Below are positions 1-17,842 of a stretch of 17,842 nucleotides of DNA, in pieces. The DNA lies in UHGV virus genome UHGV-1912862; one strand, given 5' to 3'. Source of the DNA: a virus. A model generated the notes under the pieces. That model was not told where the DNA came from. It ran no database searches and worked only from the letters and a program-made list of their open reading frames with translations. Numbering within the stretch: position 1 is the stretch's first letter; each line of letters starts with the position of its first letter. Made by a program: the position numbers and the translations under genes.

Positions 1-2400
1 GAAGCCTTCGGGAAGCTGACCACAGACCCGACGTCGGGGCTGACGGCGATGGCGCGCCAGTTCCATAACGTGACGGCGGAGCAGATTGCGTATGTTGCTC
101 AGTTGCAGCGTTCCGGCGATGAAGCCGGGGCATTGCAGGCGGCGAACGAGGCCGCAACGAAAGGGTTTGATGACCAGACCCGCCGCCTGAAAGAGAACAT
201 GGGCACGCTGGAGACCTGGGCAGACAGGACTGCGCGGGCATTCAAATCCATGTGGGATGCGGTGCTGGATATTGGTCGTCCTGATACCGCGCAGGAGATG
301 CTGATTAAGGCAGAGGCTGCGTTTAAGAAAGCAGACGACATCTGGAATCTGCGCAAGGATGATTATTTTGTTAACGATGAAGCGCGGGCGCGTTACTGGG
401 ATGACCGTGAAAAGGCCCGTCTTGCGCTTGAAGCCGCCCGAAAGAAGGCTGAGCAGCAGACTCAACAGGACAAAAATGCGCAGCAGCAGAGCGATACCGA
501 AGCGTCACGGCTGAAATATACCGAAGAGGCGCAGAAGGCTTACGAACGCCTGCAGACACCGCTGGAGAAATATACCGCCCGCCAGGAGGAACTGAATAAG
601 GCACTGAAAGACGGAAAAATCCTGCAGGCAGATTACAACACGCTGATGTCGGCGGCGAAAAAGGACTATGAAGCGACGCTGAAAAAGCCGAAGCAGTCCG
701 GCGTGAAAGTGTCTGCGGGCGATCGTCAGGAAGACAGTGCTCATGCTGCCCTGCTGACGCTTCAGGCAGAACTCCGGACACTGGAGAAGCATGCCGGAGC
801 GAATGAGAAAATCAGCCAGCAGCGCCGGGATTTGNNNNNNNNNNGCTGCAGACGCCGCTGGAGAAATATACCGCCCGTCAGGAAGAACTGAATAAGGCCC
901 TGAAAGACGGAAAAATCCTGCAGGCAGATTACAACACGCTGATGGCGGCGGCGAAAAAGGACTATGAAGCGACACTGAAAAAGCCGAAACAGTCCGGCGT
1001 GAAGGTGTCTGCAGGAGAGCGTCAGGAAGACAGTGCTCATGCCGCCCTGCTGACGCTTCAGGCAGAACTCCGGACGCTGGAGAAGCATGCCGGAGCGAAT
1101 GAGAAAATCAGCCAGCAGCGCCGGGATTTGTGGAAGGCGGAAAGTCAGTTCGCGGTACTGGAGGAGGCGGCGCAACGTCGCCAGCTGTCCGCACAGGAGA
1201 AATCCCTGCTGGCGCATAAAGATGAGACGCTGGAGTACAAACGCCAGCTGGCTGCACTTGGCGATAAGGTCACGTATCAGGAGCACCTGAACGCGCTGGC
1301 GCAGCAGGCGGATAAATTCGCACAGCAGCAACGGGCAAAACGGGCCGCCATTGATGCGAAAAGCCGGGGGCTGACTGACCGGCAGGCAGCGAAGGAAGCC
1401 ACGGAACAGCGCCTGAAGGAGGAGTATGGCGATAATCCGCTGGCGCTGAATAACGTCATGTCAGAGCAGAAAAAGACCTGGGCGGCTGAAGACCAGCTTC
1501 GCGGGAACTGGATGGCAGGCCTGAAGTCCGGCTGGAGTGAGTGGGAAGAGAGCGCCACGGANNNNNNNNNNAAAAAACCGGGGGCTGACTGACCGGCAGG
1601 CAGCGCGGGAAGCCACGGAACAGCGCCTGAAGGAACAGTATGGCGATAATTCTCTGGCGCTGAATAACGTCATGTCAGAGCAGAAAAAGACCTGGGCGGC
1701 TGAAGGCCAGCTTCGCGGGAGCTGGATGGCAGGCCTGAAGTCCGGCTGGAGTGAGTGGGAAGAGAGCGCCACGGACAGTATGTCGCAGGTAAAAAGTGCA
1801 GCCACGCAGACCTTTGATGGCATTGCACAGAATATGGCGGCGATGCTGACCGGCAGTGAGCAGAACTGGCGCAGCTTCACCCGTTCCGTGCTGTCCATGA
1901 TGACAGAAATTCTGCTTAAGCAGGCAATGGTGGGGATTGTCGGGAGTATCGGCAGCGTCATTGGCGGTGCTGCCGGTGGTGGCGCATCAGTGTCAGGCGG
2001 TACAGCCATTCAGGCCGCTGCGGCGAAATTCCATTTTGCGACCGGAGGATTTACGGGAACCGGCGGCAAATATGAGCCAGCGGGGATTGTTCACCGTGGT
2101 GAATTTGTCTTCACGAAGGAGGCAACCAGCCGGATTGGCGTAGGAAATCTTTACCGGCTGATGCGCGGCTATGCCACCGGTGGTTATGTCGGTGGCACCG
2201 GAAGTCCGGCGCAAATGCGGCGTTCAGAGGGTATCAGATTTGAGCAGAACAACAACGTGGTGATTCAGAACGACGGTACGAATGGTCTGCCAGGTCCACA
2301 GATGCTGAAGGCAGTGTATGACATGGCCCGCAAGGGTGCCCGTGATGAAATTCAGGCACAGATGCGCGATGGTGGTCTGTTCTCCGGAGGTGGACGATGA
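1..2400 (+). CDS. H: Tail tape-measure protein (lambda gpH-like), 5'-truncated by the window; frame broken by scaffold joins at 835-844 and 1562-1571
   Basis: Frame is open from nt 1. Translation is Ala/Gln/Lys-rich and coiled-coil-like with a Gly-rich segment (GGAAGGGASVSGG). Stop TGA 2398-2400 overlaps the M start (ATGA). Sits directly upstream of M-L-K-I-J. Confidence 0.9.
835..844. other. Scaffold join (10 N); 845-1130 re-reads about 549-834
   Basis: N-run followed by a near-identical copy with substitutions. Confidence 0.85.
1562..1571. other. Scaffold join (10 N); about 1574-1775 re-reads about 1360-1561
   Basis: N-run followed by a near-identical copy with substitutions. Confidence 0.85.
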
Positions 2401-2726
2401 AGACCTTCCGCTGGAAAGTGAAACCCGGTATGGATGTGGCTTCGGCCCCTTCCGTCAGGAAAGTGTGCTTTGGTGATGGCTATTCCCAGCGAGCGCCTGC
2501 CGGGCTGAATGCCGACCTGAAAACGTACAGCGTGACGCTTTCTGTTCCCCGTTGGGAGGCCACGGCGCTGGAGTCGTTTCTGGCTGAGCACGGGGGCTGG
2601 AAAGCCTTTCTGTGGACGCCGCCTTATGAGTGGCGGCAGATAAAGGTGACCTGCGCAAAATGGTCGTCGCGGGTCAGTATGCTGCGTGTTGAGTTCAGCG
2701 CAGAGTTTGAACAGGTGGTGAACTGA
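2397..2726 (+). CDS. M: Tail tip protein M (lambda gpM-like), 109 aa
   Basis: ORF MKTFRWKVKPGMDVASAP...EFEQVVN. GGAGG Shine-Dalgarno at 2383-2387. Stop overlaps L start (TGATG). Length and position match lambda M. Confidence 0.92.
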   Translation: MKTFRWKVKPGMDVASAPSVRKVCFGDGYSQRAPAGLNADLKTYSVTLSVPRWEATALESFLAEHGGWKAFLWTPPYEWRQIKVTCAKWSSRVSMLRVEFSAEFEQVVN

Positions 2727-3680
2727 TGCAGAATATCCGGCAGGAAACACTGAATGAATGCACCCGTGCGGAGCAGTCGGCCAGCGNNNNNNNNNNGATA
2801 TCCGGCAGGAAACACTGAATGAATGCACCCGTGCGGAGCAGTCGGCCAGCGTGGTGCTCTGGGAAATCGACCTGACAGAGGTCGGTGGAGAACGTTATTT
2901 TTTCTGTAATGAGCAGAACGAAAAAGGTGAGCCGGTCACCTGGCAGGGGCGACAGTATCAGCCGTATCCCATTCAGGGGAGCGGTTTTGAACTGAATGGC
3001 AAAGGCACCAGTACGCGCCCCACGCTGACGGTTTCTAACCTGTACGGTATGGTCACCGGGATGGCGGAAGATATGCAGAGTCTGGTCGGCGGAACGGTGG
3101 TCCGGCGTAAGGTTTACGCCCGTTTTCTGGATGCGGTGAACTTCGTCAACGGAAACAGTTACGCCGATCCGGAGCAGGAGGTGATCAGCCGCTGGCGCAT
3201 TGAGCAGTGCAGCGAACTGAGCGCGGTGAGTGCCTCCTTTGTACTGTCCACGCCGACGGAAACGGATGGCGCTGTTTTTCCGGGACGTATCATGCTGGCC
3301 AACACCTGCACCTGGACCTATNNNNNNNNNNCTTCGTCAACGGAAACAGCGACGCCGATCCGGAGCAGGAGGTGATCAGTCGCTGGCGCATCGAGCAGTG
3401 CAGCGAACTGAGCGCGGTCAGTGCCTCCTTTGTACTGTCCACACCGACGGAAACGGACGGCGCTGTTTTTCCGGGACGTATCATGCTGGCCAACACCTGC
3501 ACCTGGACCTATCGCGGTGACGAGTGCGGTTATAGCGGTCCGGCTGTCGCGGATGAATATGACCAGCCAACGTCCGATATCACGAAGGATAAATGCAGCA
3601 AATGCCTGAGCGGTTGTAAGTTCCGCAATAACGTCGGCAACTTTGGCGGCTTCCTTTCCATTAACAAACTTTCGCAGTAA
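2726..3680 (+). CDS. L: Tail tip protein L (lambda gpL-like); contains two scaffold joins (2787-2796, 3322-3331) with re-read blocks, true length about 232 aa
   Basis: Translation MQNIRQETLNECTRAEQSASVVLWEIDLTEVGGERYFFCNEQ... ending with a Cys cluster (RGDECGY...DKCSKCLSGCKF) as in gpL. After subtracting the re-reads the length is about 700 nt. Confidence 0.92.
2787..2796. other. Scaffold join (10 N); 2798-2851 re-reads 2733-2786
   Basis: N-run followed by a near-identical copy. Confidence 0.85.
3322..3331. other. Scaffold join (10 N); 3332-3512 re-reads 3141-3321
   Basis: N-run followed by a near-identical copy with substitutions. Confidence 0.85.
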
Positions 3681-3684
3681 TCCC

Positions 3685-4428
3685 ATGACAGAGACAGAAT
3701 CAGCGATTCTGGCGCACGCCCGGCGATGTGCGCCAGCGGAGTCGTGCGGCTTCGTGGTAAGCACGCCGGAGGGGGAAAGATATTTCCCCTGCGTGAATAT
3801 CTCCGGTGAGCCGGAGGCGTATTTCCGTATGTCGCCGGAAGACTGGCTGCAGGCAGAAATGCAGGGTGAGATTGTGGCGCTGGTCCACAGCCACCCCGGT
3901 GGTCTGCCCTGGCTGAGTGAGGCCGACCGGCGGCTGCAGGTGCAGAGTGATTTGCCGTGGTGGCTGGTCTGCCGGGGGACGATTCATAAGTTCCGCTGTG
4001 TGCCGCATCTCACCGGGCGGCGCTTTGAGCACGGTGTGACGGACTGTTACACACTGTTCCGGGATGCTTATCATCTGGCGGGGATTGAGATGCCGGACTT
4101 TCATCGTGAGGATGACTGGTGGCGTAACGGCCAGAATCTCTATCTGGATAATCTGGAGGCCACAGGGCTGTATCAGGTGCCGTTGTCATCAGCACAACCG
4201 GGCGATGTGCTGCTGTGCTGTTTTGGTTCATCGGTGCCGAATCATGCCGCCATTTACTGTGGTGATGGCGAGCTGCTGCACCATATTCCTGAACAACTGA
4301 GCAAACGAGAGAGGTACACCGACAAATGGCAGCGACGCACACACACCCTCTGGCGTCACCGGGCATGGCGCGCATCTGCCTTTACGGGGATTTACAACGA
4401 TTTGGCCGCCGCATCGACCTTCGTGTGA
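3685..4428 (+). CDS. K: Tail tip assembly protein K (JAMM/MPN plus NlpC/P60-like), 247 aa; alternative internal start at 3829 would give 199 aa
   Basis: ATG at 3685 (MTETESAILAHARR...). JAMM motif HSHPGGLPWLSEAD (HxHx7Sx2D) and downstream Cys/His consistent with NlpC/P60. Its 3' end overlaps the I start out of frame by about 100 nt. Confidence 0.9.
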   Translation: MTETESAILAHARRCAPAESCGFVVSTPEGERYFPCVNISGEPEAYFRMSPEDWLQAEMQGEIVALVHSHPGGLPWLSEADRRLQVQSDLPWWLVCRGTIHKFRCVPHLTGRRFEHGVTDCYTLFRDAYHLAGIEMPDFHREDDWWRNGQNLYLDNLEATGLYQVPLSSAQPGDVLLCCFGSSVPNHAAIYCGDGELLHHIPEQLSKRERYTDKWQRRTHTLWRHRAWRASAFTGIYNDLAAASTFV

Positions 4429-5155
4429 AAACGGGGGCTGAAGCCATCCGGGCACTGGCCACACAGCTCCCGGCGTTTCGTCAGAAACTGTGCGACGGCT
4501 GGTATCAGGTACGGATTGCCGGGCGGGACGTCAGCACGTCCGGGTTAACGGCGCAGTTACATGAGACTCTGCCTGATGGCGCTGTGATTCATATTGTTNN
4601 NNNNNNNNCGCACTGGCCACACAGCTCCCGGCGTTTCGTCAGAAACTGAGCGACGGCTGGTATCAGGTACGGATTGCCGGGCAGGATGTCAGCACGTCCG
4701 GATTAACGGCGCAGTTACATGAGACTCTGCCTGATGGCGCTGTGATTCATATTGTTCCCAGAGTCGCCGGGGCCAAGTCAGGTGGTGTATTCCAGATTGT
4801 CCTGGGAGCAGCCGCCATTGCCGGATCATTCTTTACCGCCGGAGCCACCCTTGCAGCATGGGGGGCAGCCATTGGGGCCGGTGGTATGACCGGCATCCTG
4901 TTTTCTCTCGGTGCCAGTATGGTGCTCGGTGGTGTGGCGCAGATGCTGGCACCGAAAGCCCGGACGCCCACAGCGACCAGCACGGATAACGGTAAGCAGA
5001 ACACGTATTTCTCTTCACTGGATAACATGGTTGCCCAGGGCAATGTTCTGCCTGTTCTGTACGGTGAAATGCGCGTGGGGTCACGCGTGGTTTCTCAGGA
5101 GATCAGCACGGCAGACGAAGGGGATGGTGGTCAGGTTGTGGTGATTGGTCGCTGA
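4326..5155 (+). CDS. I: Tail tip assembly protein I (lambda gpI-like); contains scaffold join 4599-4608 and a re-read, true length about 222 aa
   Basis: MAATHTHPLASPGMARICLYGDLQRFGRRIDLRVKTGAEAIRALATQLPAFRQK... followed by a Gly/Ala-rich hydrophobic C-terminal half ...GDGGQVVVIGR. Stop TGA 5153-5155. Confidence 0.9.
4599..4608. other. Scaffold join (10 N); 4609-4756 re-reads 4451-4598
   Basis: N-run followed by a near-identical copy with substitutions. Confidence 0.85.
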
Positions 5156-5173
5156 TGCAAAATGTTTTATGTG

Positions 5174-5199
5174 AAACCGCCTCCGGGCGGTTTTGTCGT
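5174..5199 (+). promoter_or_regulatory. Perfect 8-bp hairpin (AAACCGCC-tccg-GGCGGTTT) followed by a T-rich tract in the I-J intergenic spacer; possible attenuator or RNA-stability element
   Basis: Inverted repeat read directly from the sequence. A second copy with the same stem and loop tgcg lies at 6064-6089 in the re-read block. Confidence 0.35.
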
Positions 5200-5215
5200 T
5201 TATGGAGCGTGAGGA

Positions 5216-5665
5216 ATGGGTAAAGGCAGCAGTAAGGGGCATACCCCGCGCGAAGCAAAGGACAACCTGAAGTCCACGCAGCTGCTGAGTGTGATCGATG
5301 CCATCAGTGAAGGGCCGATTGAAGGTCCGGTGGATGGATTAAAAAGCGTGCTGCTGAACAGTACGCCGGTGCTGGACAGTGAGGGGAATGCCAATATATC
5401 CGGCGTCACGGTGGTGTTCCGGGCAGGTGAGCAGGAGCAGACTCCGCCGGAGGGGGTTGAATCCTCCGGTTCCGAGACGGTGCTGGGTACGGAAGTGAAA
5501 TATGACACGCCGATCACCCGCACCATCACGTCGGCAAACATCGACCGTCTGCGCTTTACCTTCGGTGTGCAGGCACTGGTGGAAACCACCTCAAAGGGGG
5601 ACAGGAATCCATCGGAAGTCCGCCTGCTGGTTCAGATACAGCGTAACGGTGGCTGGGTGACGGAA
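5216..5665 (+). CDS. J: Host-specificity protein J, 5' fragment (first allele copy, cut by scaffold join 5666-5675)
   Basis: MGKGSSKGHTPREAKDNLKSTQLLSVIDAISEGPIEGPVDGLK... is about 96 percent identical to 6106-6555. GAGG Shine-Dalgarno at 5211-5214. Confidence 0.8.
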
Positions 5666-5675
5666 NNNNNNNNNN
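5666..5675. other. Scaffold join (10 N); 5676-6555 re-reads 4786-5665 (I 3' end, I-J spacer, J 5' end)
   Basis: N-run followed by an 880-nt diverged copy at constant offset 890. Confidence 0.85.
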
Positions 5676-6045
5676 CGTATTCCAGATTGTCCTGGGAGCT
5701 GCCGCCATTGCCGGATCATTCTTTACTGCCGGAGCCACCCTTGCAGCATGGGGGGCAGCCATTGGGGCCGGTGGTATGACCGGCATCCTGTTTTCTCTCG
5801 GTGCCAGTATGGTGCTCGGTGGTGTGGCGCAGATGCTGGCACCGAAAGCCAGAACTCCCCGTACACAGATAACGGATAACGGCAAACAAAACACCTATTT
5901 CTCCTCACTGGATAACATGGTTGCCCAGGGCAATGTTCTGCCCGTTCTGTTCGGTGAAATGCGCGTGGGGTCACGTGTGGCATCTCAGGAGATCAGTACA
6001 GCTGATGAAGGTGATGGTGGTGAAATCGTGGTGATTGGTCGCTGA
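5676..6045 (+). CDS. I: Tail assembly protein I, 3' fragment (second allele copy; re-read of 4786-5155 with substitutions)
   Basis: Encodes ...APKARTPRTQITDNGKQNTYFSSLDNMVAQGNVLPVLFGEMRVGSRVASQEISTADEGDGGEIVVIGR, against TPTATSTDNG...YGEM...GQVVVIGR in copy one. Confidence 0.8.
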
Positions 6046-6105
6046 TGGAACATGTTTTATATGAAACCGCCTGCGGGCGGTTTTGTCGTTTATGGAGCAT
6101 GAGGA

Positions 6106-11127
<5,022 letters not shown>

Positions 11128-11146
11128 ATTTTATAACCCATATACG

Positions 11147-11172
11147 GGCACCAGAAATGGTGCCTTTTTTTT
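11147..11172 (+). terminator. Rho-independent terminator after J (GGCACCA-gaaa-TGGTGCC then T8)
   Basis: 7-bp GC-rich stem, GAAA tetraloop and T8 run, 20 nt after the J stop. Confidence 0.65.
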
Positions 11173-11193
11173 GCAGAAAAGCGAGAGGTAATT

Positions 11194-11730
11194 ATGCGTA
11201 AATTATGTGCTGTTATTCTGTCCACAGTAGTCTGGCTGGTCGCCGCTGGTACGCCAGCGAGCGCAGCAGAGCATCAGTCCACACTAAGCGCCGGGTATCT
11301 TCAGACCCATACTGATATGCCCGGCAACGATGACCTGAAGGGCATTAACGTGAAATACCGTTATGAATTTACGGACACGCTGGGGCTGGTGACGTCATTC
11401 AGTTATGCCAATGCCAAAGATGAGCAAAAAACGCATTACAGCGATACCCGCTGGCATGAAGATTCAGTGCGTAACCGCTGGTTCAGCATGATGGCGGGGC
11501 CGTCTGTACGCGTGAATGAATGGTTCAGTGCTTATGCGATGGCAGGTGTGGCTTACAGCCGTGTTTCGACGTTCTCCGGGGATTATCTCCGCGTAACTGA
11601 CAACAAGGGGAAAACGCACGATGTGCTGACCGGAAGTGATGACGATCGCCACAGCAACACGTCTCTGGCGTGGGGAGCTGGCGTGCAGTTTAACCCGACC
11701 GAATCCGTGGCCATTGATATTGCTTATGAA
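11194..11730 (+). CDS. lom: Lom-family outer membrane protein (Ail/OmpX/Lom beta-barrel), allele copy A, 3' end lost at scaffold join 11731-11740
   Basis: MRKLCAVILSTVVWLVAAGTPASAAEHQSTLSAGYLQTHTDMPGNDDLKGINVKYRYEFTDTLG... Signal peptide plus beta-strand pattern. GAGAGG Shine-Dalgarno at 11183-11188. Confidence 0.8.
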
Positions 11731-11740
11731 NNNNNNNNNN
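11731..11740. other. Scaffold join (10 N); 11741-12332 re-reads about 11140-11730 (terminator plus lom)
   Basis: N-run followed by a diverged copy; the lom signal-peptide region differs markedly. Confidence 0.85.
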
Positions 11741-11747
11741 CAATACG

Positions 11748-11771
11748 GGCGCCAGAAATGGCGCCTTTTTT
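11748..11771 (+). terminator. Second copy of the post-J terminator (GGCGCCA-gaaa-TGGCGCC then T6) inside the re-read block
   Basis: Same hairpin as 11147-11172 with G-C/A-T compensatory changes in the stem. Confidence 0.5.
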
Positions 11772-11795
11772 ATTGCAGAAAAGCGAGAGGTAATT

Positions 11796-12395
11796 ATGCG
11801 TAAAGTTTATGCAGCCATTTTGTCCGCAGCCATCTGTCTGGCCGTATCCGGTGCGCCTGCATGGGCATCTGAGCAGCAGGCCACACTGAGCGCAGGGTAT
11901 CTTCATGCCCGTACGAACGCTCCCGGCAGCGATAATCTGAACGGGATTAACGTGAAATACCGTTATGAGTTTACGGACACGCTGGGGCTGATTACGTCAT
12001 TCAGTTATGCCAACGCTGAAGATGAGCAAAAAACGCATTACAGCGATACCCGCTGGCATGAGGATTCCGTGCGTAACCGCTGGTTCAGCGTGATGGCGGG
12101 ACCGTCTGTGCGCGTGAATGAATGGTTCAGCGCGTATGCGATGGCGGGGGTGGCTTACAGCCGTGTTTCGACCTTCTCCGGGGATTATCTGCAGGTGACC
12201 GACAACAAGGGGAAAACGCACGATGTGCTGACCGGAAGTGATGACGGTCGCCACAGCAACACGTCTCTGGCGTGGGGGGCTGGCGTGCAGTTTAACCCGA
12301 CCGAATCCGTGGCCATTGATATTGCTTATGAAGGCTCCGGCAGTGGCGACTGGCGCACTGACGGTTTCATCGTGGGTGTCGGTTATAAATTCTGA
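11796..12395 (+). CDS. lom: Lom-family outer membrane protein, allele copy B, complete, 199 aa
   Basis: MRKVYAAILSAAICLAVSGAPAWASEQQATLSAGYLHARTNAPGSDNLNGINVKYRYEFTDTLGLITSFSYANAEDEQKTHYSDTRWHEDSVRNRWF...GFIVGVGYKF. C-terminal aromatic residue typical of OMP barrels. Confidence 0.9.
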   Translation: MRKVYAAILSAAICLAVSGAPAWASEQQATLSAGYLHARTNAPGSDNLNGINVKYRYEFTDTLGLITSFSYANAEDEQKTHYSDTRWHEDSVRNRWFSVMAGPSVRVNEWFSAYAMAGVAYSRVSTFSGDYLQVTDNKGKTHDVLTGSDDGRHSNTSLAWGAGVQFNPTESVAIDIAYEGSGSGDWRTDGFIVGVGYKF

Positions 12396-12422
12396 TTAGC
12401 CAGGTAACACAGTGTTATGACA

Positions 12423-12449
12423 GCCCGCCGGTTCAGGCGGGCTTTTTTG
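12423..12449 (+). terminator. Rho-independent terminator after lom (GCCCGCC-ggttcag-GGCGGGC then T6)
   Basis: 7-bp GC stem and T-run, directly followed by GGAG (12451-12454) and the stf ATG at 12460. Confidence 0.65.
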
Positions 12450-12459
12450 TGGAGTGGAT

Positions 12460-14817
12460 ATGGCAGCAGTAAAAATCTCAGGTGTGCTGAAAGATGGTGC
12501 GGGAAAACCAATACAGAACTGCACTATTCAACTGAAGGCAAAGCGTAACAGCACCACTGTACTGGTGAACACGGTGGCCTCTGAAAATCCGGATGAAGCC
12601 GGGCGTTACAGCATGGACGTTGAGTATGGCCAGTATAGCGTTATCCTGCTGGTTGAAGGTTTTCCGCCTTCACATGCCGGGATCATTACCGTCTATGAAG
12701 GTTCCAGACCAGGTACGCTGAATGATTTTCTCGGTGCCATGACGGAAGATGATGTCATGCCGGAGGCATTGCGTCGTTTTGAGGCAATGGTGGAAGAAGC
12801 GGCACGCAACGCCGAAGCCGCCTCTCAGAGCGCAGCGGTGGCAAAGAAATCCGAAACTGCAGCGGCATCATCGAAGAACGCGGCGAAAACCTCAGAAACG
12901 AATGCAGCTAACAGCGCACAGGCGGCAGCGTCCTCGCAGACTGCATCGGCAAACTCCGCGACAGCAGCCAAAAAATCAGAAACCAACGCGAAAAACAGCG
13001 AGACAGCCGCAAAGACGAGCGAAACCAACGCAAAGTCCAGCCAGACGGCAGCGAAGACCAGCGAAACGAATGCCAAAGCCAGTGAAACTGCGGCAAAAAA
13101 CAGCCAGGTTGCAGCAGCCCAAAGCGAGAGCGCGGCAGCCGGTTCTGCGACTTCAGCAGCTGGATCAGCAACTGCTGCGGCTAACAGCCAGAAAGCTGCG
13201 AAGACGAGTGAAACTAACGCAAAGTCCAGCCAGACGGCAGCGAAGACCAGCGAAACGAATGCCAAAGCCAGCGAAACTGCGGCGAAAAGCAGTCAGGATG
13301 CAGCAGCCGAAAGCGAGAGTGCTGCAGCTGGTTCTGCAACAGCGGCAGCTAATAGCCAAAAAGCTGCAAAAACCAGTGAAACTAACGCAAAGGCGAGCGA
13401 AACAAAAGCAGCAGCCAGCGAGACAGAAGCAACGTCAGCCGCAACAAGAGCAGAGAATGCAGCCCGGATTGCAGAAGATGCCGCTGATCCTGCTTCTGTC
13501 CCTCCGCTTCCTGATATCTGGCTACCCTTGAATGATTCTCTGGAAGCGATAACAGGGTATGCGCCGGGGTATAAAACAATAACCATCGGCAGCGATGAAA
13601 TCACTGTGCCAGTTAATGGCATATGCCAATTTAGCCGGGCTTCATCTGCAACGTATATTGATAAGTCCGGGCATATTACCGTGGCAGGTAATAACGTTCC
13701 TCGTTTTGAAAAATATGGTTTGCTGATAGAGAATCAGCGAACAAACATGTTCGTAAATAGTTTTAATCCTGATGCGTGGAATAAAAGCGGTGGTATATCT
13801 GTAACATCATCAACAGATGAATTTGAGTTTAAATATGGACGTTTCACGGTAGGAAGCGATATAGCAGGAACGACAACAGGGAGAAATATATGCACAGTTG
13901 CTGGTAACAAAGGCATAGATGTGACTGGCGATGATCAGTACAGTAAAGGTCCGTATGTTACCGCGTCGTTCAGGGTAAGAAGTGATCTCAATGTTCGCGC
14001 ACGTATCCGTTTTGAACGGTATAACTCGGAAGGATACACCTTCCTTTGCGACGCCTATTTGTCATTACAGACCCATGAACTACAAATTACTGGTGGCAAT
14101 GCCCAGCTATTAACAGCAAACTTTGAAATCGACCCTGGTAGTGGATGGATATATTTTCAGGCAACACTGAAATGTCTGCCAGAATGGGGAATGGTTGGTA
14201 CGCAGCTGCAAATTGCAGCCGACAGAGCTGTGGGAGCTTTTGCAACAGGTGACTGGATAGAAGTAACCACCCCGCAATTCGAGTATGGTGCTTGTGCAAC
14301 TTCCTTCATCATAACGACAACAGAGCCAGCGACTCGTGCATCAGATTTATGTAAATTTCCGCTGATGAAAAATATGTATACCATGCCTTTTACGTTCATG
14401 GTGGAAGTCCATAAAAACTGGTTTATTTCTCATAATGCTGCACCGCGTGTCATTGATTCAGAAAATCACCAGTCCGGAGGCCCATTTATTATGGGGTTTG
14501 GTTCTTCTGGAACTATCAGTCAGGACGGTTATTCGTATTGCGATATAGGCGGGGCTAACCGACGTGTATATGAATCATGCGGAGTAAGGGATCTCGTTAT
14601 GGGATTCAGGGTTAAGGCTGACGGCATGACATGCTCATTTGCAAATAAGCATATAAGCGCTGAAACAAAAACAGTATGGAAATATATTCGTGAAGCAGCC
14701 GTGATTCGTATCGGGGGGCAAACGACGACAGGATTACGACACCTTAATGGTCATATAAAAAACCTCCGTTTCTGGAACAGAGCATTGTCAGATACGCAGC
14801 TTAAGGAATACGTATAA
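12460..14817 (+). CDS. stf: Side tail fibre protein Stf: conserved N-terminal attachment domain, Ala/Ser/Thr-rich repeat shaft, AT-rich C-terminal receptor-binding domain with a LamG-like terminal motif
   Basis: From ATG 12460: MAAVKISGVLKDGAGKPIQNCTIQLKAKRNSTTVLVNTVASENPDEAGRYSMDVEYGQYSVIL... (lambdoid Stf N-terminus). Repeats KTSETNAK(A/S)S(E/Q)TAAK. C-terminus ...GHIKNLRFWNRALSDTQLKEYV. The ORF-track start at 12454 is GTG; I prefer ATG 12460. Confidence 0.85.
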   Translation: MAAVKISGVLKDGAGKPIQNCTIQLKAKRNSTTVLVNTVASENPDEAGRYSMDVEYGQYSVILLVEGFPPSHAGIITVYEGSRPGTLNDFLGAMTEDDVMPEALRRFEAMVEEAARNAEAASQSAAVAKKSETAAASSKNAAKTSETNAANSAQAAASSQTASANSATAAKKSETNAKNSETAAKTSETNAKSSQTAAKTSETNAKASETAAKNSQVAAAQSESAAAGSATSAAGSATAAANSQKAAKTSETNAKSSQTAAKTSETNAKASETAAKSSQDAAAESESAAAGSATAAANSQKAAKTSETNAKASETKAAASETEATSAATRAENAARIAEDAADPASVPPLPDIWLPLNDSLEAITGYAPGYKTITIGSDEITVPVNGICQFSRASSATYIDKSGHITVAGNNVPRFEKYGLLIENQRTNMFVNSFNPDAWNKSGGISVTSSTDEFEFKYGRFTVGSDIAGTTTGRNICTVAGNKGIDVTGDDQYSKGPYVTASFRVRSDLNVRARIRFERYNSEGYTFLCDAYLSLQTHELQITGGNAQLLTANFEIDPGSGWIYFQATLKCLPEWGMVGTQLQIAADRAVGAFATGDWIEVTTPQFEYGACATSFIITTTEPATRASDLCKFPLMKNMYTMPFTFMVEVHKNWFISHNAAPRVIDSENHQSGGPFIMGFGSSGTISQDGYSYCDIGGANRRVYESCGVRDLVMGFRVKADGMTCSFANKHISAETKTVWKYIREAAVIRIGGQTTTGLRHLNGHIKNLRFWNRALSDTQLKEYV
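13031..13400 (+). repeat. Imperfect in-frame tandem repeats (about 170-190 nt units) within the stf shaft
   Basis: caaagtccagccagacggcagcgaagaccagcgaaacgaatgccaaagcc recurs at 13031 and 13220. Shorter KTSETNAK motifs span about 12890-13400. Confidence 0.6.
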
Positions 14818-15086
14818 TGCGAGATATAACATTACGATTCGATAACAGAGAACAGTTTAACGCAATTGTATATGACAGTGGCCTGTTCAGTCTTGAAGAA
14901 GAAAACGGGGTTCTTGTTGATGTTATTGGCTGCATTATCGATTACGAGGAGCCAGAAAACGAAAGATGTACAGGCATTGATCGCGGTGGTTTTTTCGTAA
15001 ACATGAGGATTGTTGATAGCAGTAAAAACATATCTTCTTTAATGCCTTTCATTACGACAGATCAGCATGTAAGGACATGGGCTTAA
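14817..15086 (+). CDS. Hypothetical small acidic protein (89 aa), translationally coupled to stf (TAATG overlap)
   Basis: ATG 14817 overlaps the stf stop. AT-rich like its neighbours. No motif recognised: MRDITLRFDNREQFNAIVYDSGLFSLEEENGVLVDVIGCIIDYEEPENERC... Confidence 0.5.
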   Translation: MRDITLRFDNREQFNAIVYDSGLFSLEEENGVLVDVIGCIIDYEEPENERCTGIDRGGFFVNMRIVDSSKNISSLMPFITTDQHVRTWA

Positions 15087-15098
15087 TGGAGTAAGACA

Positions 15099-16139
15099 AT
15101 GGTTACAAAAACAGTAATTCCTGATGACATCAAAACGCTAAAATCCGATGTTAGTAAACTAAAAACTGATCAAGGAAGCTATGCAACAAAATCATATGTA
15201 GACAATAAAACAACATGGAATAGTTATTGCAATGTAATCTATGATCAAAAGGCATTGCCGACCACTGGAACTATATTTAGCGGTAAGATTCACTTGTCAA
15301 ATAAGACAGGAGAAACCGAAAACGCTTATAGTGAGATGTACACCAGAAAAAATATTGACGGTACAAAAGATACAATGACAAGGATTGTCACACACAATGG
15401 AACAAAAGGTATCTTTTGGGATTTTAGCGATCTTTACGGCGGAACATTAATTTTTCCAGGCAGTGATGGTTACCTTAAGATGGGGAACTGTCTCATGTCG
15501 TATGGTGTGCGGGGAAGTAACGCGCTTATTAAGTTTGACTGCACAGACACATTACAAATCAAATATGCCAATCATGGGTCAACCATGACATTAAACACAC
15601 AGGGGACCGCTCATTCTGGCGCTACTACTAGTTTGTGGGGTAACTCTACCCGTCCGGTTGTATATGAAGTTGGTGCTGATGGTGGCGCGTATATGTTCTA
15701 TGCGCAGAAAAATACCGATAACACCTATATGTTAAGCGTTAATGGTGCATGTCATGCCACCGCATTTAACCAGCATTCCGACCGGGATCTGAAAGACAAC
15801 ATTCAGGTGATCGATAATGCAACCGACCGCATCCGTAAAATGAACGGCTATACATACACGCTTAAAGAAAACGGTATGCCCTATGCAGGTGTCATTGCAC
15901 AGGAAGCTCTGGAAGCAATCCCAGAAGTTGTCGGTTCCGCAATGAAATATCAGGACGGTGCAAGCGGATCGGAAGGTGAAGAAGGTGAACGTTATTACAC
16001 AGTAGATTATTCTGGTGTTACTGGCTTGCTTGTTCAGGTAGCCAGAGAGTCAGACGACAGAATAACAGTACTGGAAGAAGAAAACGCAGAATTAAGGCAA
16101 AGATTATCTGCAATTGAGGCGACGCTTGCGTCTAAATAA
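15099..16139 (+). CDS. Tail fibre/tailspike-like protein with C-terminal intramolecular chaperone (peptidase S74 / endosialidase-chaperone-type) domain, 346 aa
   Basis: GGAGTAAG Shine-Dalgarno before ATG 15099. C-terminal region ...NQHSDRDLKDNIQVIDNATDRIRKMNGYTYTLKE..YAGVIAQEALEAIPEVV...LEEENAELRQRLSAIEATL carries the SDxxLK and G(V/F)IAQE hallmarks plus a terminal coiled coil. AT-rich. Confidence 0.75.
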   Translation: MVTKTVIPDDIKTLKSDVSKLKTDQGSYATKSYVDNKTTWNSYCNVIYDQKALPTTGTIFSGKIHLSNKTGETENAYSEMYTRKNIDGTKDTMTRIVTHNGTKGIFWDFSDLYGGTLIFPGSDGYLKMGNCLMSYGVRGSNALIKFDCTDTLQIKYANHGSTMTLNTQGTAHSGATTSLWGNSTRPVVYEVGADGGAYMFYAQKNTDNTYMLSVNGACHATAFNQHSDRDLKDNIQVIDNATDRIRKMNGYTYTLKENGMPYAGVIAQEALEAIPEVVGSAMKYQDGASGSEGEEGERYYTVDYSGVTGLLVQVARESDDRITVLEEENAELRQRLSAIEATLASK

Positions 16140-16180
16140 TATTAAGGGCTATGCGCCCCGTTTTATTGGGTAGGATGAAA

Positions 16181-16474
16181 ATGGATATAACACCTTTTCT
16201 TCATGCGCTTTGTGCTGTGGCTGCGCAGGTACTGGTTGGTCTTTTTACCGGAAACTGGGCTTACGGGGCGATAGCCGGTTGTACATTCTTCATTGCGCGG
16301 GAACACACCCAGGCAGAATATCGCTGGATTGAAATGTTCGGGCATTGCAAGCGGATTAACATGCCGTGGTGGGGCGGTTTTGATCCGCGTGTTTGGGATG
16401 TGGCAAGCCTGATAGATTTTGCTGTGCCGGTGGTGGCGTGTCTGCTGGTCTGGCTGTTGGTTAATCGTGGGTGA
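16181..16474 (+). CDS. Small polytopic inner-membrane protein (about 97 aa, three hydrophobic segments), function unknown
   Basis: AGGA at 16172-16175 then ATG 16181 (the ORF track begins at 16151). Hydrophobic stretches FLHALCAVAAQVLVGLFTG, AYGAIAGCTFFIA, LIDFAVPVVACLLVWLLV. G+C is host-like, unlike the upstream cassette. Confidence 0.5.
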   Translation: MDITPFLHALCAVAAQVLVGLFTGNWAYGAIAGCTFFIAREHTQAEYRWIEMFGHCKRINMPWWGGFDPRVWDVASLIDFAVPVVACLLVWLLVNRG

Positions 16475-16484
16475 AAAAAGGTGA

Positions 16485-16604
16485 GCTGTATATGCAACGG
16501 AGGAAGAAATCTCGTTGCTGGAAGCATGGAAAAAGTATCGGGTATTGCTGAACCGTGTTGATACGTCAACTGCACAGGATATTGAATGGCCAGCACTGCC
16601 GTAG
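16485..16604 (+). pseudogene. tfa: 3' remnant of a tail fibre assembly gene (tfa); only the last ~40 codons remain
   Basis: Frame-3 translation [39 protein letters not shown]-stop matches the conserved Tfa C-terminus (..[33 protein letters not shown]..). An in-frame stop lies at 16482-16484 and there is no start codon. Confidence 0.7.
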
Positions 16605-16701
16605 GGTAAAACATATAAATTCTATAATTAGATGTATCTTTCCATTTACGGCAAGGAAGGGGGCTTGGAAGACGTAAAGCATCTCACACCGAGATTATTT
16701 T

Positions 16702-17292
16702 TTATATGTCAGGTGTCTGAAGTTTTGCTTTGGCTCTTAAAATGGTTTGCCGCGAGGTTTTGAATTCCCGGGCAATGGCACTTATACTTACACCTGACTT
16801 AATTCGTTCGAATACCACCTGTTTCTGTTCTTCATTTAACACAGGTGGTCGACCAAAACGTTTCCCTGCGCCGCGGGCTCTTACTATCCCGGAATGAGTG
16901 CGTTCAAGTAAAAGGTCTCGTTCAAATTCAGCGACTGCTGAAATTACTTGCATCATCATTTTTCCTGTTGGACTGGTCAGGTCAATGCCCCCCAATGCTA
17001 AGCAATGCACTCTGATACCTGTTTCGGTCAGTTGTTCCACTGTTTTCCTGATATCCATTGCATTACAACCAAGGCGATCCAGTTTTGTCACAATCAATTG
17101 ATCACCACATTTCAGGCGAGCAAGCAACCGGTTAAAACCAGGACGCTCACTGGTTGCTGCTGAGCCGCTAATGTGTTCTTCGATTATTTGCTGAGATTTG
17201 ATGTTAAAACCTGCACTTTCGATTTCCCGGCGTTGATTTTCGGTGGTCTGATCCAGCGTTGATATCCGACAGTAAGCAAAAATTCGAGACAT
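16702..17292 (-). CDS. pin: Serine recombinase of the DNA-invertase family (Pin/Gin/Hin-like), 196 aa
   Basis: [20 protein letters not shown]... has the resolvase/invertase N-terminal catalytic motif (Ser11) and a C-terminal HTH ([21 protein letters not shown]). Position after stf/tfa and length 196 aa match the PinR/PinQ arrangement of Rac/Qin prophages as I recall it. Confidence 0.88.
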
Positions 17293-17608
17293 AGTGAGAC
17301 TCTATACGAAATTGGTGTTCATATCATAATGCATCTCAGAAAATAATTATGATTATTTTTGTGCATATTTGTATGTACACGTTCGAAAATAAACGAATGC
17401 GTATGCAACCCCGTAATTTTGGTGAGACCCAAAATCGATTTTGTGAAAAATGGCTTTAACTCGGTTTGTTTTTCGAGTTCCGGGAGGACTCAAGGAAGAA
17501 GAATAGTGTTGCGTGTTATTTTAACCAGATTTCAAGTTGTTTGGTCGTGGAAAAGTGGAGCAAAATGTTGTTAAAGTGGAAAAATGATAAAAAAGTAAGT
17601 TTATTATA

Positions 17609-17842
17609 TTACATTTTACCATTTAAATTTTGGTTGTCTTTAAGAACTGATATCGCTGTTTGTAATAATTCTTTGTTATCCAGCCATGATTTTTTCTTTA
17701 TGTTTCCTTCAATGTAATCAAGCAATGTTCTGGTATTGATAGGTCTTCCCTGTTTTGCTACTTCCACTACAGCATCCCCTAGGATAATTCTTACTTCAGG
17801 AAGCTGCGCAGGGAACCACTTTAGGGTGTCTTTTGATTTCAT
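17609..17842 (-). CDS. Small protein (77 aa), YdfK/YnaE-like by synteny with pin
   Basis: Complete ORF MKSKDTLKWFPAQLPEVRIILGDAVVEVAKQGRPINTRTLLDYIEG...; the start codon coincides with the window edge. AT-rich. The identity rests on recalled Rac/Qin gene order (pin next to ynaE/ydfK), not on a search. Confidence 0.5.
   Translation of the reverse strand: MKSKDTLKWFPAQLPEVRIILGDAVVEVAKQGRPINTRTLLDYIEGNIKKKSWLDNKELLQTAISVLKDNQNLNGKM

Follow-up and report, generated by a model that had tools for sequence, protein, structure and literature searches.

A 3′ remnant of tfa beside a side tail fibre cassette in an Escherichia coli lambdoid prophage, and its probable part in cassette exchange

Tfa is built from a variable N-terminal domain that binds the fibre and a conserved, helical C-terminal domain responsible for trimerisation (literature summarised in PMC9608196). 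Recombination through its gene has been shown experimentally, with lambda x Rac recombinants crossing over in a 95%-identical tfa region (De Paepe et al. 2014, PMC3945230). Site-specific inversion of fibre genes has been described as well. According to a 2025 paper, PinR and PinQ invert the P segment of e14 in trans and block adsorption of phage T2 (PMC12529663). Incomplete copies of tfa are also on record, and the remnant considered here is itself already known in the sense that it is flagged as a pseudogene in public E. coli genomes.

The window analysed here, a stretch of 17,842 nucleotides (UHGV virus genome UHGV-1912862), is the tail end of an E. coli lambdoid prophage. Close to its right end lies a dead, non-functional tfa pseudogene fragment (16493-16604), which is an ordinary feature. 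A first-pass annotation of this DNA had taken the fragment as a sign that an ancestral stf-tfa pair was once present and that the breakpoint of its replacement lies within tfa. From the comparison of related loci, we consider it very probable that the fragment is the dead 3′ leftover of an stf-tfa replacement and that it later came to act as a passive right-hand homology arm.

Table 1. Features of the window with their coordinates, strand and supporting evidence
Feature	Coordinates	Strand	Evidence or remark
10-N runs, first half	835-844, 1562-1571, 2787-2796, 3322-3331, 4599-4608, 5666-5675		
10-N runs, second half	7651-7660, 8115-8124, 8679-8688, 9731-9740, 10484-10493, 11731-11740		
stf-like side tail fibre gene, 787 aa	12454..14817	+	phage_tail_N at residues 5-134, E = 6e-66; phrog_1419 over full length
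89-aa cassette gene	14817..15086	+	phrog_1361, E = 1e-30; function unknown
346-aa distal fibre protein with C-terminal intramolecular chaperone domain	15099..16139	+	Peptidase_S74; phrog_4563 (tail fibre) over full length
97-aa three-helix membrane protein gene	16181..16474	+	phrog_1443, E = 1e-57; alternative ATG 16151
Junction filler, 33 nt	16460..16492	+	Alignments; matches neither the PhiR11_1 cassette end nor tfa
tfa 3′ remnant	16493..16604	+	DNA identity, tblastn, Pfam Caudo_TAP, PGAP
tfa-pin spacer, 97 nt	16605..16701	.	100% identical to Rac, Kati and mEp460; inherited with the remnant
PinR/PinQ-type serine DNA invertase gene	16702..17292	-	Pfam Resolvase and HTH_7; convergent right-hand neighbour

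Identity and extent of the tfa remnant

The remnant comprises codons Ala156 to Pro191 and the TAG stop of a TfaR/TfaQ-type gene. Translation bore out the conserved Tfa C-terminal peptide that the first-pass annotation had read in frame 3 of 16485-16604, together with the stop directly upstream of it (TGA at 16482-16484), and the other two frames across 16443-16607 gave products unrelated to tfa. Two details of that reading needed adjustment. The statement that the frame has no start codon holds for ATG and GTG, but an in-frame TTG is present at 16515, 10 nt after a GGAGGA (16499-16504), and would yield 29 aa. Likewise, the stretch is tfa-derived from 16493/16494 (Ala156) onwards, whereas the AVY codons at 16485-16493 are not.

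The 39-residue peptide matches Pfam PF02413 Caudo_TAP (E = 1.7e-16, profile positions 95-130 of 131), and several PHROG tail fibre assembly families are matched by it as well. With full-length TfaR as a tblastn query against the window, residues 156-191 align at 16494-16601 with 100% identity (E = 4e-19), and across all frames of the window the search, run to E <= 10, found no further segment of TfaR or lambda Tfa, each used at full length. An overlooked, frame-corrected tfa upstream was thus sought in all frames and not found, and tfaR, tfaQ and lambda tfa all aligned strongly here with their 3′ ends, so that the original reading of a tfa 3′ end survives both checks.

At the DNA level, the tfa 3′ end and spacer of Kati and mEp460 are identical to window 16493-16720 at 228/228 nt. 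The tfaR gene of Rac is 100% identical to the remnant, with the identity continuing through the spacer towards pinR, and tfaQ of Qin is 100% identical over the aligned stretch, which extends some tens of bases beyond the stop. Lambda tfa shows a handful of substitutions up to the WPA codons and is divergent thereafter, and the lambda Tfa protein shares 89% identity with the remnant. Such a match lies far beyond chance. Strain A33 has the equivalent of window 16494-16604 labelled by PGAP/RefSeq as 'tail fiber assembly protein, incomplete, missing N-terminus'.

Of the features expected of a functional Tfa, the fragment retains the match to the family profile. The N-terminal fibre-binding domain of the full-length protein (about 190 aa) is absent from the window, and neither an ORF with an ATG or GTG start codon nor purifying selection on conserved residues is seen. 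ATG 16492, which follows the AAGGTGA of the filler, opens an out-of-frame ORF of 19 codons across the remnant (16492-16551, + strand); both this ORF and the pairing of GGAGGA with TTG 16515 are probably accidental.

The replaced stf-tfa pair and its junction

The N-terminal attachment domain of the stf-like gene, up to about 12812, constitutes a conserved left-hand homology arm, and the remainder of the gene is cassette-specific. Internal direct repeats at 12901-13445 (+ strand), which include two 189-nt units with 83% identity (12955-13143 and 13144-13332), are the repeated shaft region of this fibre. The 89-aa cassette protein is without a Pfam match. In the 346-aa fibre, PF13884 Peptidase_S74 spans residues 227-278 (E = 6e-14, above the curated cut-off), which places an S74 domain at the C-terminus. 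On the right-hand side, the invertase shares 99% identity with PinR and 98% with PinQ and is succeeded by a ydfK/ynaE-type gene, and a terminator scan of the + strand from the remnant to pin found none. A perfect 14-nt palindrome, CAAAATCGATTTTG, is located upstream of pin at 17430-17443 and recurs in Rac. The complete genome of strain A33 has an IS66-family ISEc8 within the 346-aa fibre gene of the same prophage (L001 2774-5086, corresponding to window about 15261-15273), and that prophage adjoins prfC.

An intact pair occupies the place between the same flanks in Kati, mEp460 and Rac, all of which have the order lom, full stf, full 191-aa tfa, the same spacer, pin and ynaE/ydfK. This supports the ancestral stf-tfa pair that had been proposed. 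The left flank up to 12812, consisting of lom and the stf N-terminal domain, is 88-89% identical to Kati and mEp460, the right flank (16493-17842) is 99.6% identical to both, and the window therefore agrees on both sides with the lom-stf-tfa-pin module of Rac/Qin/mEp460 type. Between 12812 and 16493 there is no Kati or mEp460 match. About 3.7 kb in the window (12813-16492) stands against about 3.5 kb in Kati and mEp460, made up of the stf C-terminal part and tfa codons 1-155. Given that homology resumes at 16493 and that tfa codons 1-155 are missing, the proposal that the replacement breakpoint falls inside tfa is supported too. On these alignments, the window has precisely the appearance of a Rac/Kati/mEp460-type phage with its stf C-terminal part and tfa codons 1-155 swapped out.

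The cassette side of the junction can be read from PhiR11_1, which carries the same cassette without the tfa remnant and whose homology to the window stops at 16459. Neither parent matches the 33 nt at 16460-16492, so the breakpoint is bracketed to 16460-16493 and no more narrowly. This filler contains the last four codons and the stop of the membrane-protein gene, an A6 run, the Shine-Dalgarno-like AAGGTGA and ATG 16492. It is identical across all junction-bearing loci (85 loci examined), and the sequence that follows it enters the remnant at the same nucleotide in 85/85. A hunt for the source of the filler in IMG/VR returned only the same junction with point variants, plus four unrelated chance matches.

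One might suspect an assembly artefact behind a join of this kind, with reads of two prophages merged into a chimera in a draft genome. Over its first 11.7 kb, the window is in fact a scaffold of 12 overlapping pieces joined by 10-N runs, and the first 12.5 kb maps to only 8.46 kb of complete genomes. However, positions 11743-17842 are without N and are collinear with the complete genomes MS20659 and A33 (the IS in A33 aside) as well as with isolated phages, and the same arrangement in many independent complete genomes refutes the artefact, which we regard as vanishingly improbable. The effects of the scaffolding are seen further to the left. Apparent tandem repeats in 1-12400 were rejected as biological features, being scaffold joins at which adjacent pieces overlap in the reference and are 83-100% identical, and the two lom copies (11194-11793 and 11796-12395) and the split J and tape-measure ORFs are probably artefacts that stem from two related co-resident prophages.

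Spread, exchange and decay of the shared junction

When counted with a 161-nt probe across the junction at a coverage of 80% or more, the junction is present in 1739/5426 complete E. coli genomes (32%), and 79 IMG/VR contigs contain the exact 26-mer that spans the filler. The isolated, viable phages Tritos, PhiR63_1, 2G7b and PhiR49_2 have the identical junction, and HannyBb probably carries it too, judged by block homology alone. A literature search on the PhiR phages found no papers.

At least eight types of tfa tail and right flank are joined to this one junction, the 3′ half of the remnant varying between loci along with the downstream sequence. The tail type found here ends in QDIEWPALP before the stop and is accompanied by pin. 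A second type ends in PDIEWPTNPVRE before the stop and is accompanied by a ybcY-type methyltransferase or DinI; further tails include PDIEWLIQP, again at the stop, and several rarer ones. Genomes of ST131 type have a remnant that breaks off at the equivalent of 16550 and is directly followed by sitABCD iron/manganese transporter cargo (e.g. JJ2434, L012 5001-5151). With the identical junction in 32% of complete E. coli genomes and next to many different right flanks, the scar is old, shared and inherited, and not a local event of this prophage.

An stf gene, a full tfa and a ybcY-type flank are present in PhiR26_1, the tfa and flank being 99.5% identical to the remnant-plus-flank of 2G7b from the second base of the remnant. 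Together with the pin-bearing arrangement, this puts the junction in two 'intact parent' contexts, of which at most one can be original. Since two parents cannot yield one identical illegitimate join, at least one context would have gained the cassette via homologous recombination through the remnant. In this prophage, too, cassette and scar may have arrived jointly through homologous recombination. Its remnant is identical to tfaR from the first base, which fits a founding context as well as a later arrival; if the cassette did arrive by recombination, the same identity would put the crossover no more than about 20 nt from the junction, or else to the right of it. More stray tfa 3′ fragments were observed in the b-region of related phages (Kati, L002 6773-6869; 2G7b, L007 7071-7145; PhiR26_1, L094 5400-5705), so that leftover tfa tails are common debris there in lambdoid genomes.

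The invertase gene 97 nt downstream of the remnant raises the question of whether the junction was made by Pin in a site-specific reaction and not by an illegitimate join followed by homologous exchange. Invertase-driven exchange of stf has been proposed, with reference to Mu G, P1 C and e14 P, in literature cited in PMC3945230, and PinQ and PinR are able to act in trans on e14 (PMC12529663). However, the window does not carry the sites that such a reaction would use. The hix/gix-type core AAACCNNGGTTT, with one mismatch allowed, is not found at or near the junction, its sole match (14760) being at chance level; the e14 P-segment repeat TTGGTTTGGGAGAAGG is absent from the window even with 3 mismatches; and there are no inverted repeats of 40 nt or more in the window. 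Paired inverted crossover sites flanking alternative fibre/tfa genes, the hallmark of an invertible fibre segment, are not seen either. In addition, the identical junction occurs at loci without a nearby pin, for example in 2G7b, PhiR49_2 and ST131. We consider an origin of the junction through Pin extremely unlikely, and with no crossover site in the window its invertase is an orphan.

Homologous exchange, on the other hand, has left traces within the remnant itself. Its 5′ SNP haplotypes are freely combined with different tails, all four gametes are present at 62/190 informative site pairs (32 distinct haplotypes), although some of these pairs could result from recurrent mutation, and the Hudson-Kaplan Rm is at least 3 within 98 nt of the remnant. 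Decay is evident as well. Among 84 remnant copies, the conserved Trp of EAWKKY is replaced by Arg in 13 copies, by Leu in 3 and by a stop in 1, frameshifts are present in 3 and truncation at 16550 by sitABCD-type cargo in 6; disabling mutations affect about a quarter of the copies. The remnant behaves like neutral sequence, refreshed in part through exchange with intact tfa genes.

These mutations bear on the possibility that the remnant is still expressed, either as the 29-residue peptide from TTG 16515 or, through frameshifting at the A6 run, as a fusion to the membrane protein. Such a peptide would be a free Tfa C-terminal helix and might interfere with Tfa trimerisation in competing phages, the C-terminal domain being the trimerisation part of Tfa (PMC9608196). 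The GGAGGA ahead of the TTG would be in keeping with translation, and both viable phages and one in three E. coli genomes have kept the remnant. However, replacement of the Trp by Arg, Leu or a stop, frameshift or truncation in so many copies is unexpected under selection for a peptide, and the identity of the remnant sequence is accounted for by exchange with intact tfa genes. A fusion via the A6 run was rejected outright, given that every frame connecting the membrane-protein gene to the remnant is closed, by TGA 16472-16474 in the membrane-protein frame or by TGA 16482-16484 in the tfa frame. Expression of a functional fragment is very unlikely in our judgement.

Origin of the cassette and relation to known systems

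A passive leftover can be accommodated in a simple course of events. In a lom-stf-tfa-pin ancestor of Rac/Qin/mEp460 type, one illegitimate join would have put an incoming cassette in place of the stf C-terminal part and of tfa codons 1-155; this cassette would have consisted of the rest of a different fibre, the 89-aa gene, the 346-aa S74 fibre tip and the gene of the 97-aa membrane protein. With the new fibre bringing its own chaperone, Tfa would have become dispensable, and the 36 leftover codons would simply have stayed. From then on, the remnant could have served as a passive right arm for homologous recombination, with the stf N-terminal domain as its left-hand partner, the two arms carrying the Tfa-independent cassette into phages with different right-hand neighbours. 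As part of the conserved Tfa C-terminal domain, the remnant is near-identical to many tfa alleles and hence would be a useful crossover substrate. We infer a single founding event, and the spread of the junction would presumably have proceeded through recombination and not through repeated identical joins.

The dispensability of Tfa for the S74 fibre is suggested by the predicted chaperone domain. The two commonest genes upstream of the membrane-protein gene, encoding tip proteins of 227/234 aa and 346 aa, both have Peptidase_S74. Two other upstream cassettes, of fibre or spike type, lack an S74 domain and a tfa gene alike, so that none of the cassette types seen upstream has a tfa.

The membrane-protein gene and the remnant travel as one conserved block (about 16172-16591). 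Given that the left edge of this block falls at 16172-16180 in many loci, which is the start of the membrane-protein gene, the travelling unit is that gene plus the remnant. The 97-aa protein has 571 homologues, all of them annotated 'hypothetical', with an invariant loop motif AREHTQAEYRWI..FG.GKR.NMPWWGGFD. Searches of Pfam, NCBIfam and PHROGs for its function returned only 'unknown', with no family in Pfam or NCBIfam. Its AlphaFold model is confident (pLDDT 89.6), and no fold match below E = 0.67 was found in PDB or BFVD. In a P2-like prophage of Leclercia, a homologue comes directly after a fibre of S74 type, and an Aeromonas chromosome has another that stands by itself.

It is conceivable, if unlikely, that the block is a maintained portable right-hand adaptor for Tfa-independent fibre/spike cassettes and that the membrane protein provides a new fibre-associated function. 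In that case, the tfa tail would be kept since the cassette can recombine into any tfa-bearing lambdoid phage, and the always-linked membrane protein could serve, for example, in receptor masking or superinfection exclusion.

Read as a passive leftover and homology arm, the remnant is a marker of how Tfa-independent side fibre cassettes would have replaced stf-tfa in a sizeable proportion of E. coli lambdoid prophages, through one inherited junction. It would also indicate that about 110 nt of conserved tfa suffices to keep cassettes shuttling between phages with different neighbours. This is relevant to the evolution of host range and to the engineering of lambda-type particles with swapped side fibres.

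Compared with the invertible segments Mu G, P1 C and e14 P (Gin, Cin and Pin), the locus is similar in that fibre and tfa genes adjoin a serine invertase gene, but it differs in having neither inverted duplicate fibre/tfa genes nor crossover sites. Its pin is convergent with tfa, like those of Rac and Qin. The likeness to tfaR and tfaQ extends further, the last 36 codons and the stop being identical and the pin, ydfK/ynaE neighbourhood being that of Rac and Qin. In contrast to tfaR, tfaQ and lambda tfa (orf-194), the remnant is without codons 1-155 and without a start, and it follows the membrane-protein gene instead of stf. What PGAP annotates in E. coli prophages as partial tfa pseudogenes is exactly the same feature, although the annotation is silent on the shared junction and on a role in exchange. 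In relation to the exchanges described by De Paepe et al. 2014 (PMC3945230), the arm here is a non-coding leftover of about 110 nt and the exchange is deduced from sequence comparison, yet the arrangement is alike in that a conserved tfa crossover segment is flanked by variable receptor-binding genes. The remnant alone matters little in this respect; the established picture of modular exchange through conserved tfa/stf segments is confirmed and stands unchanged.
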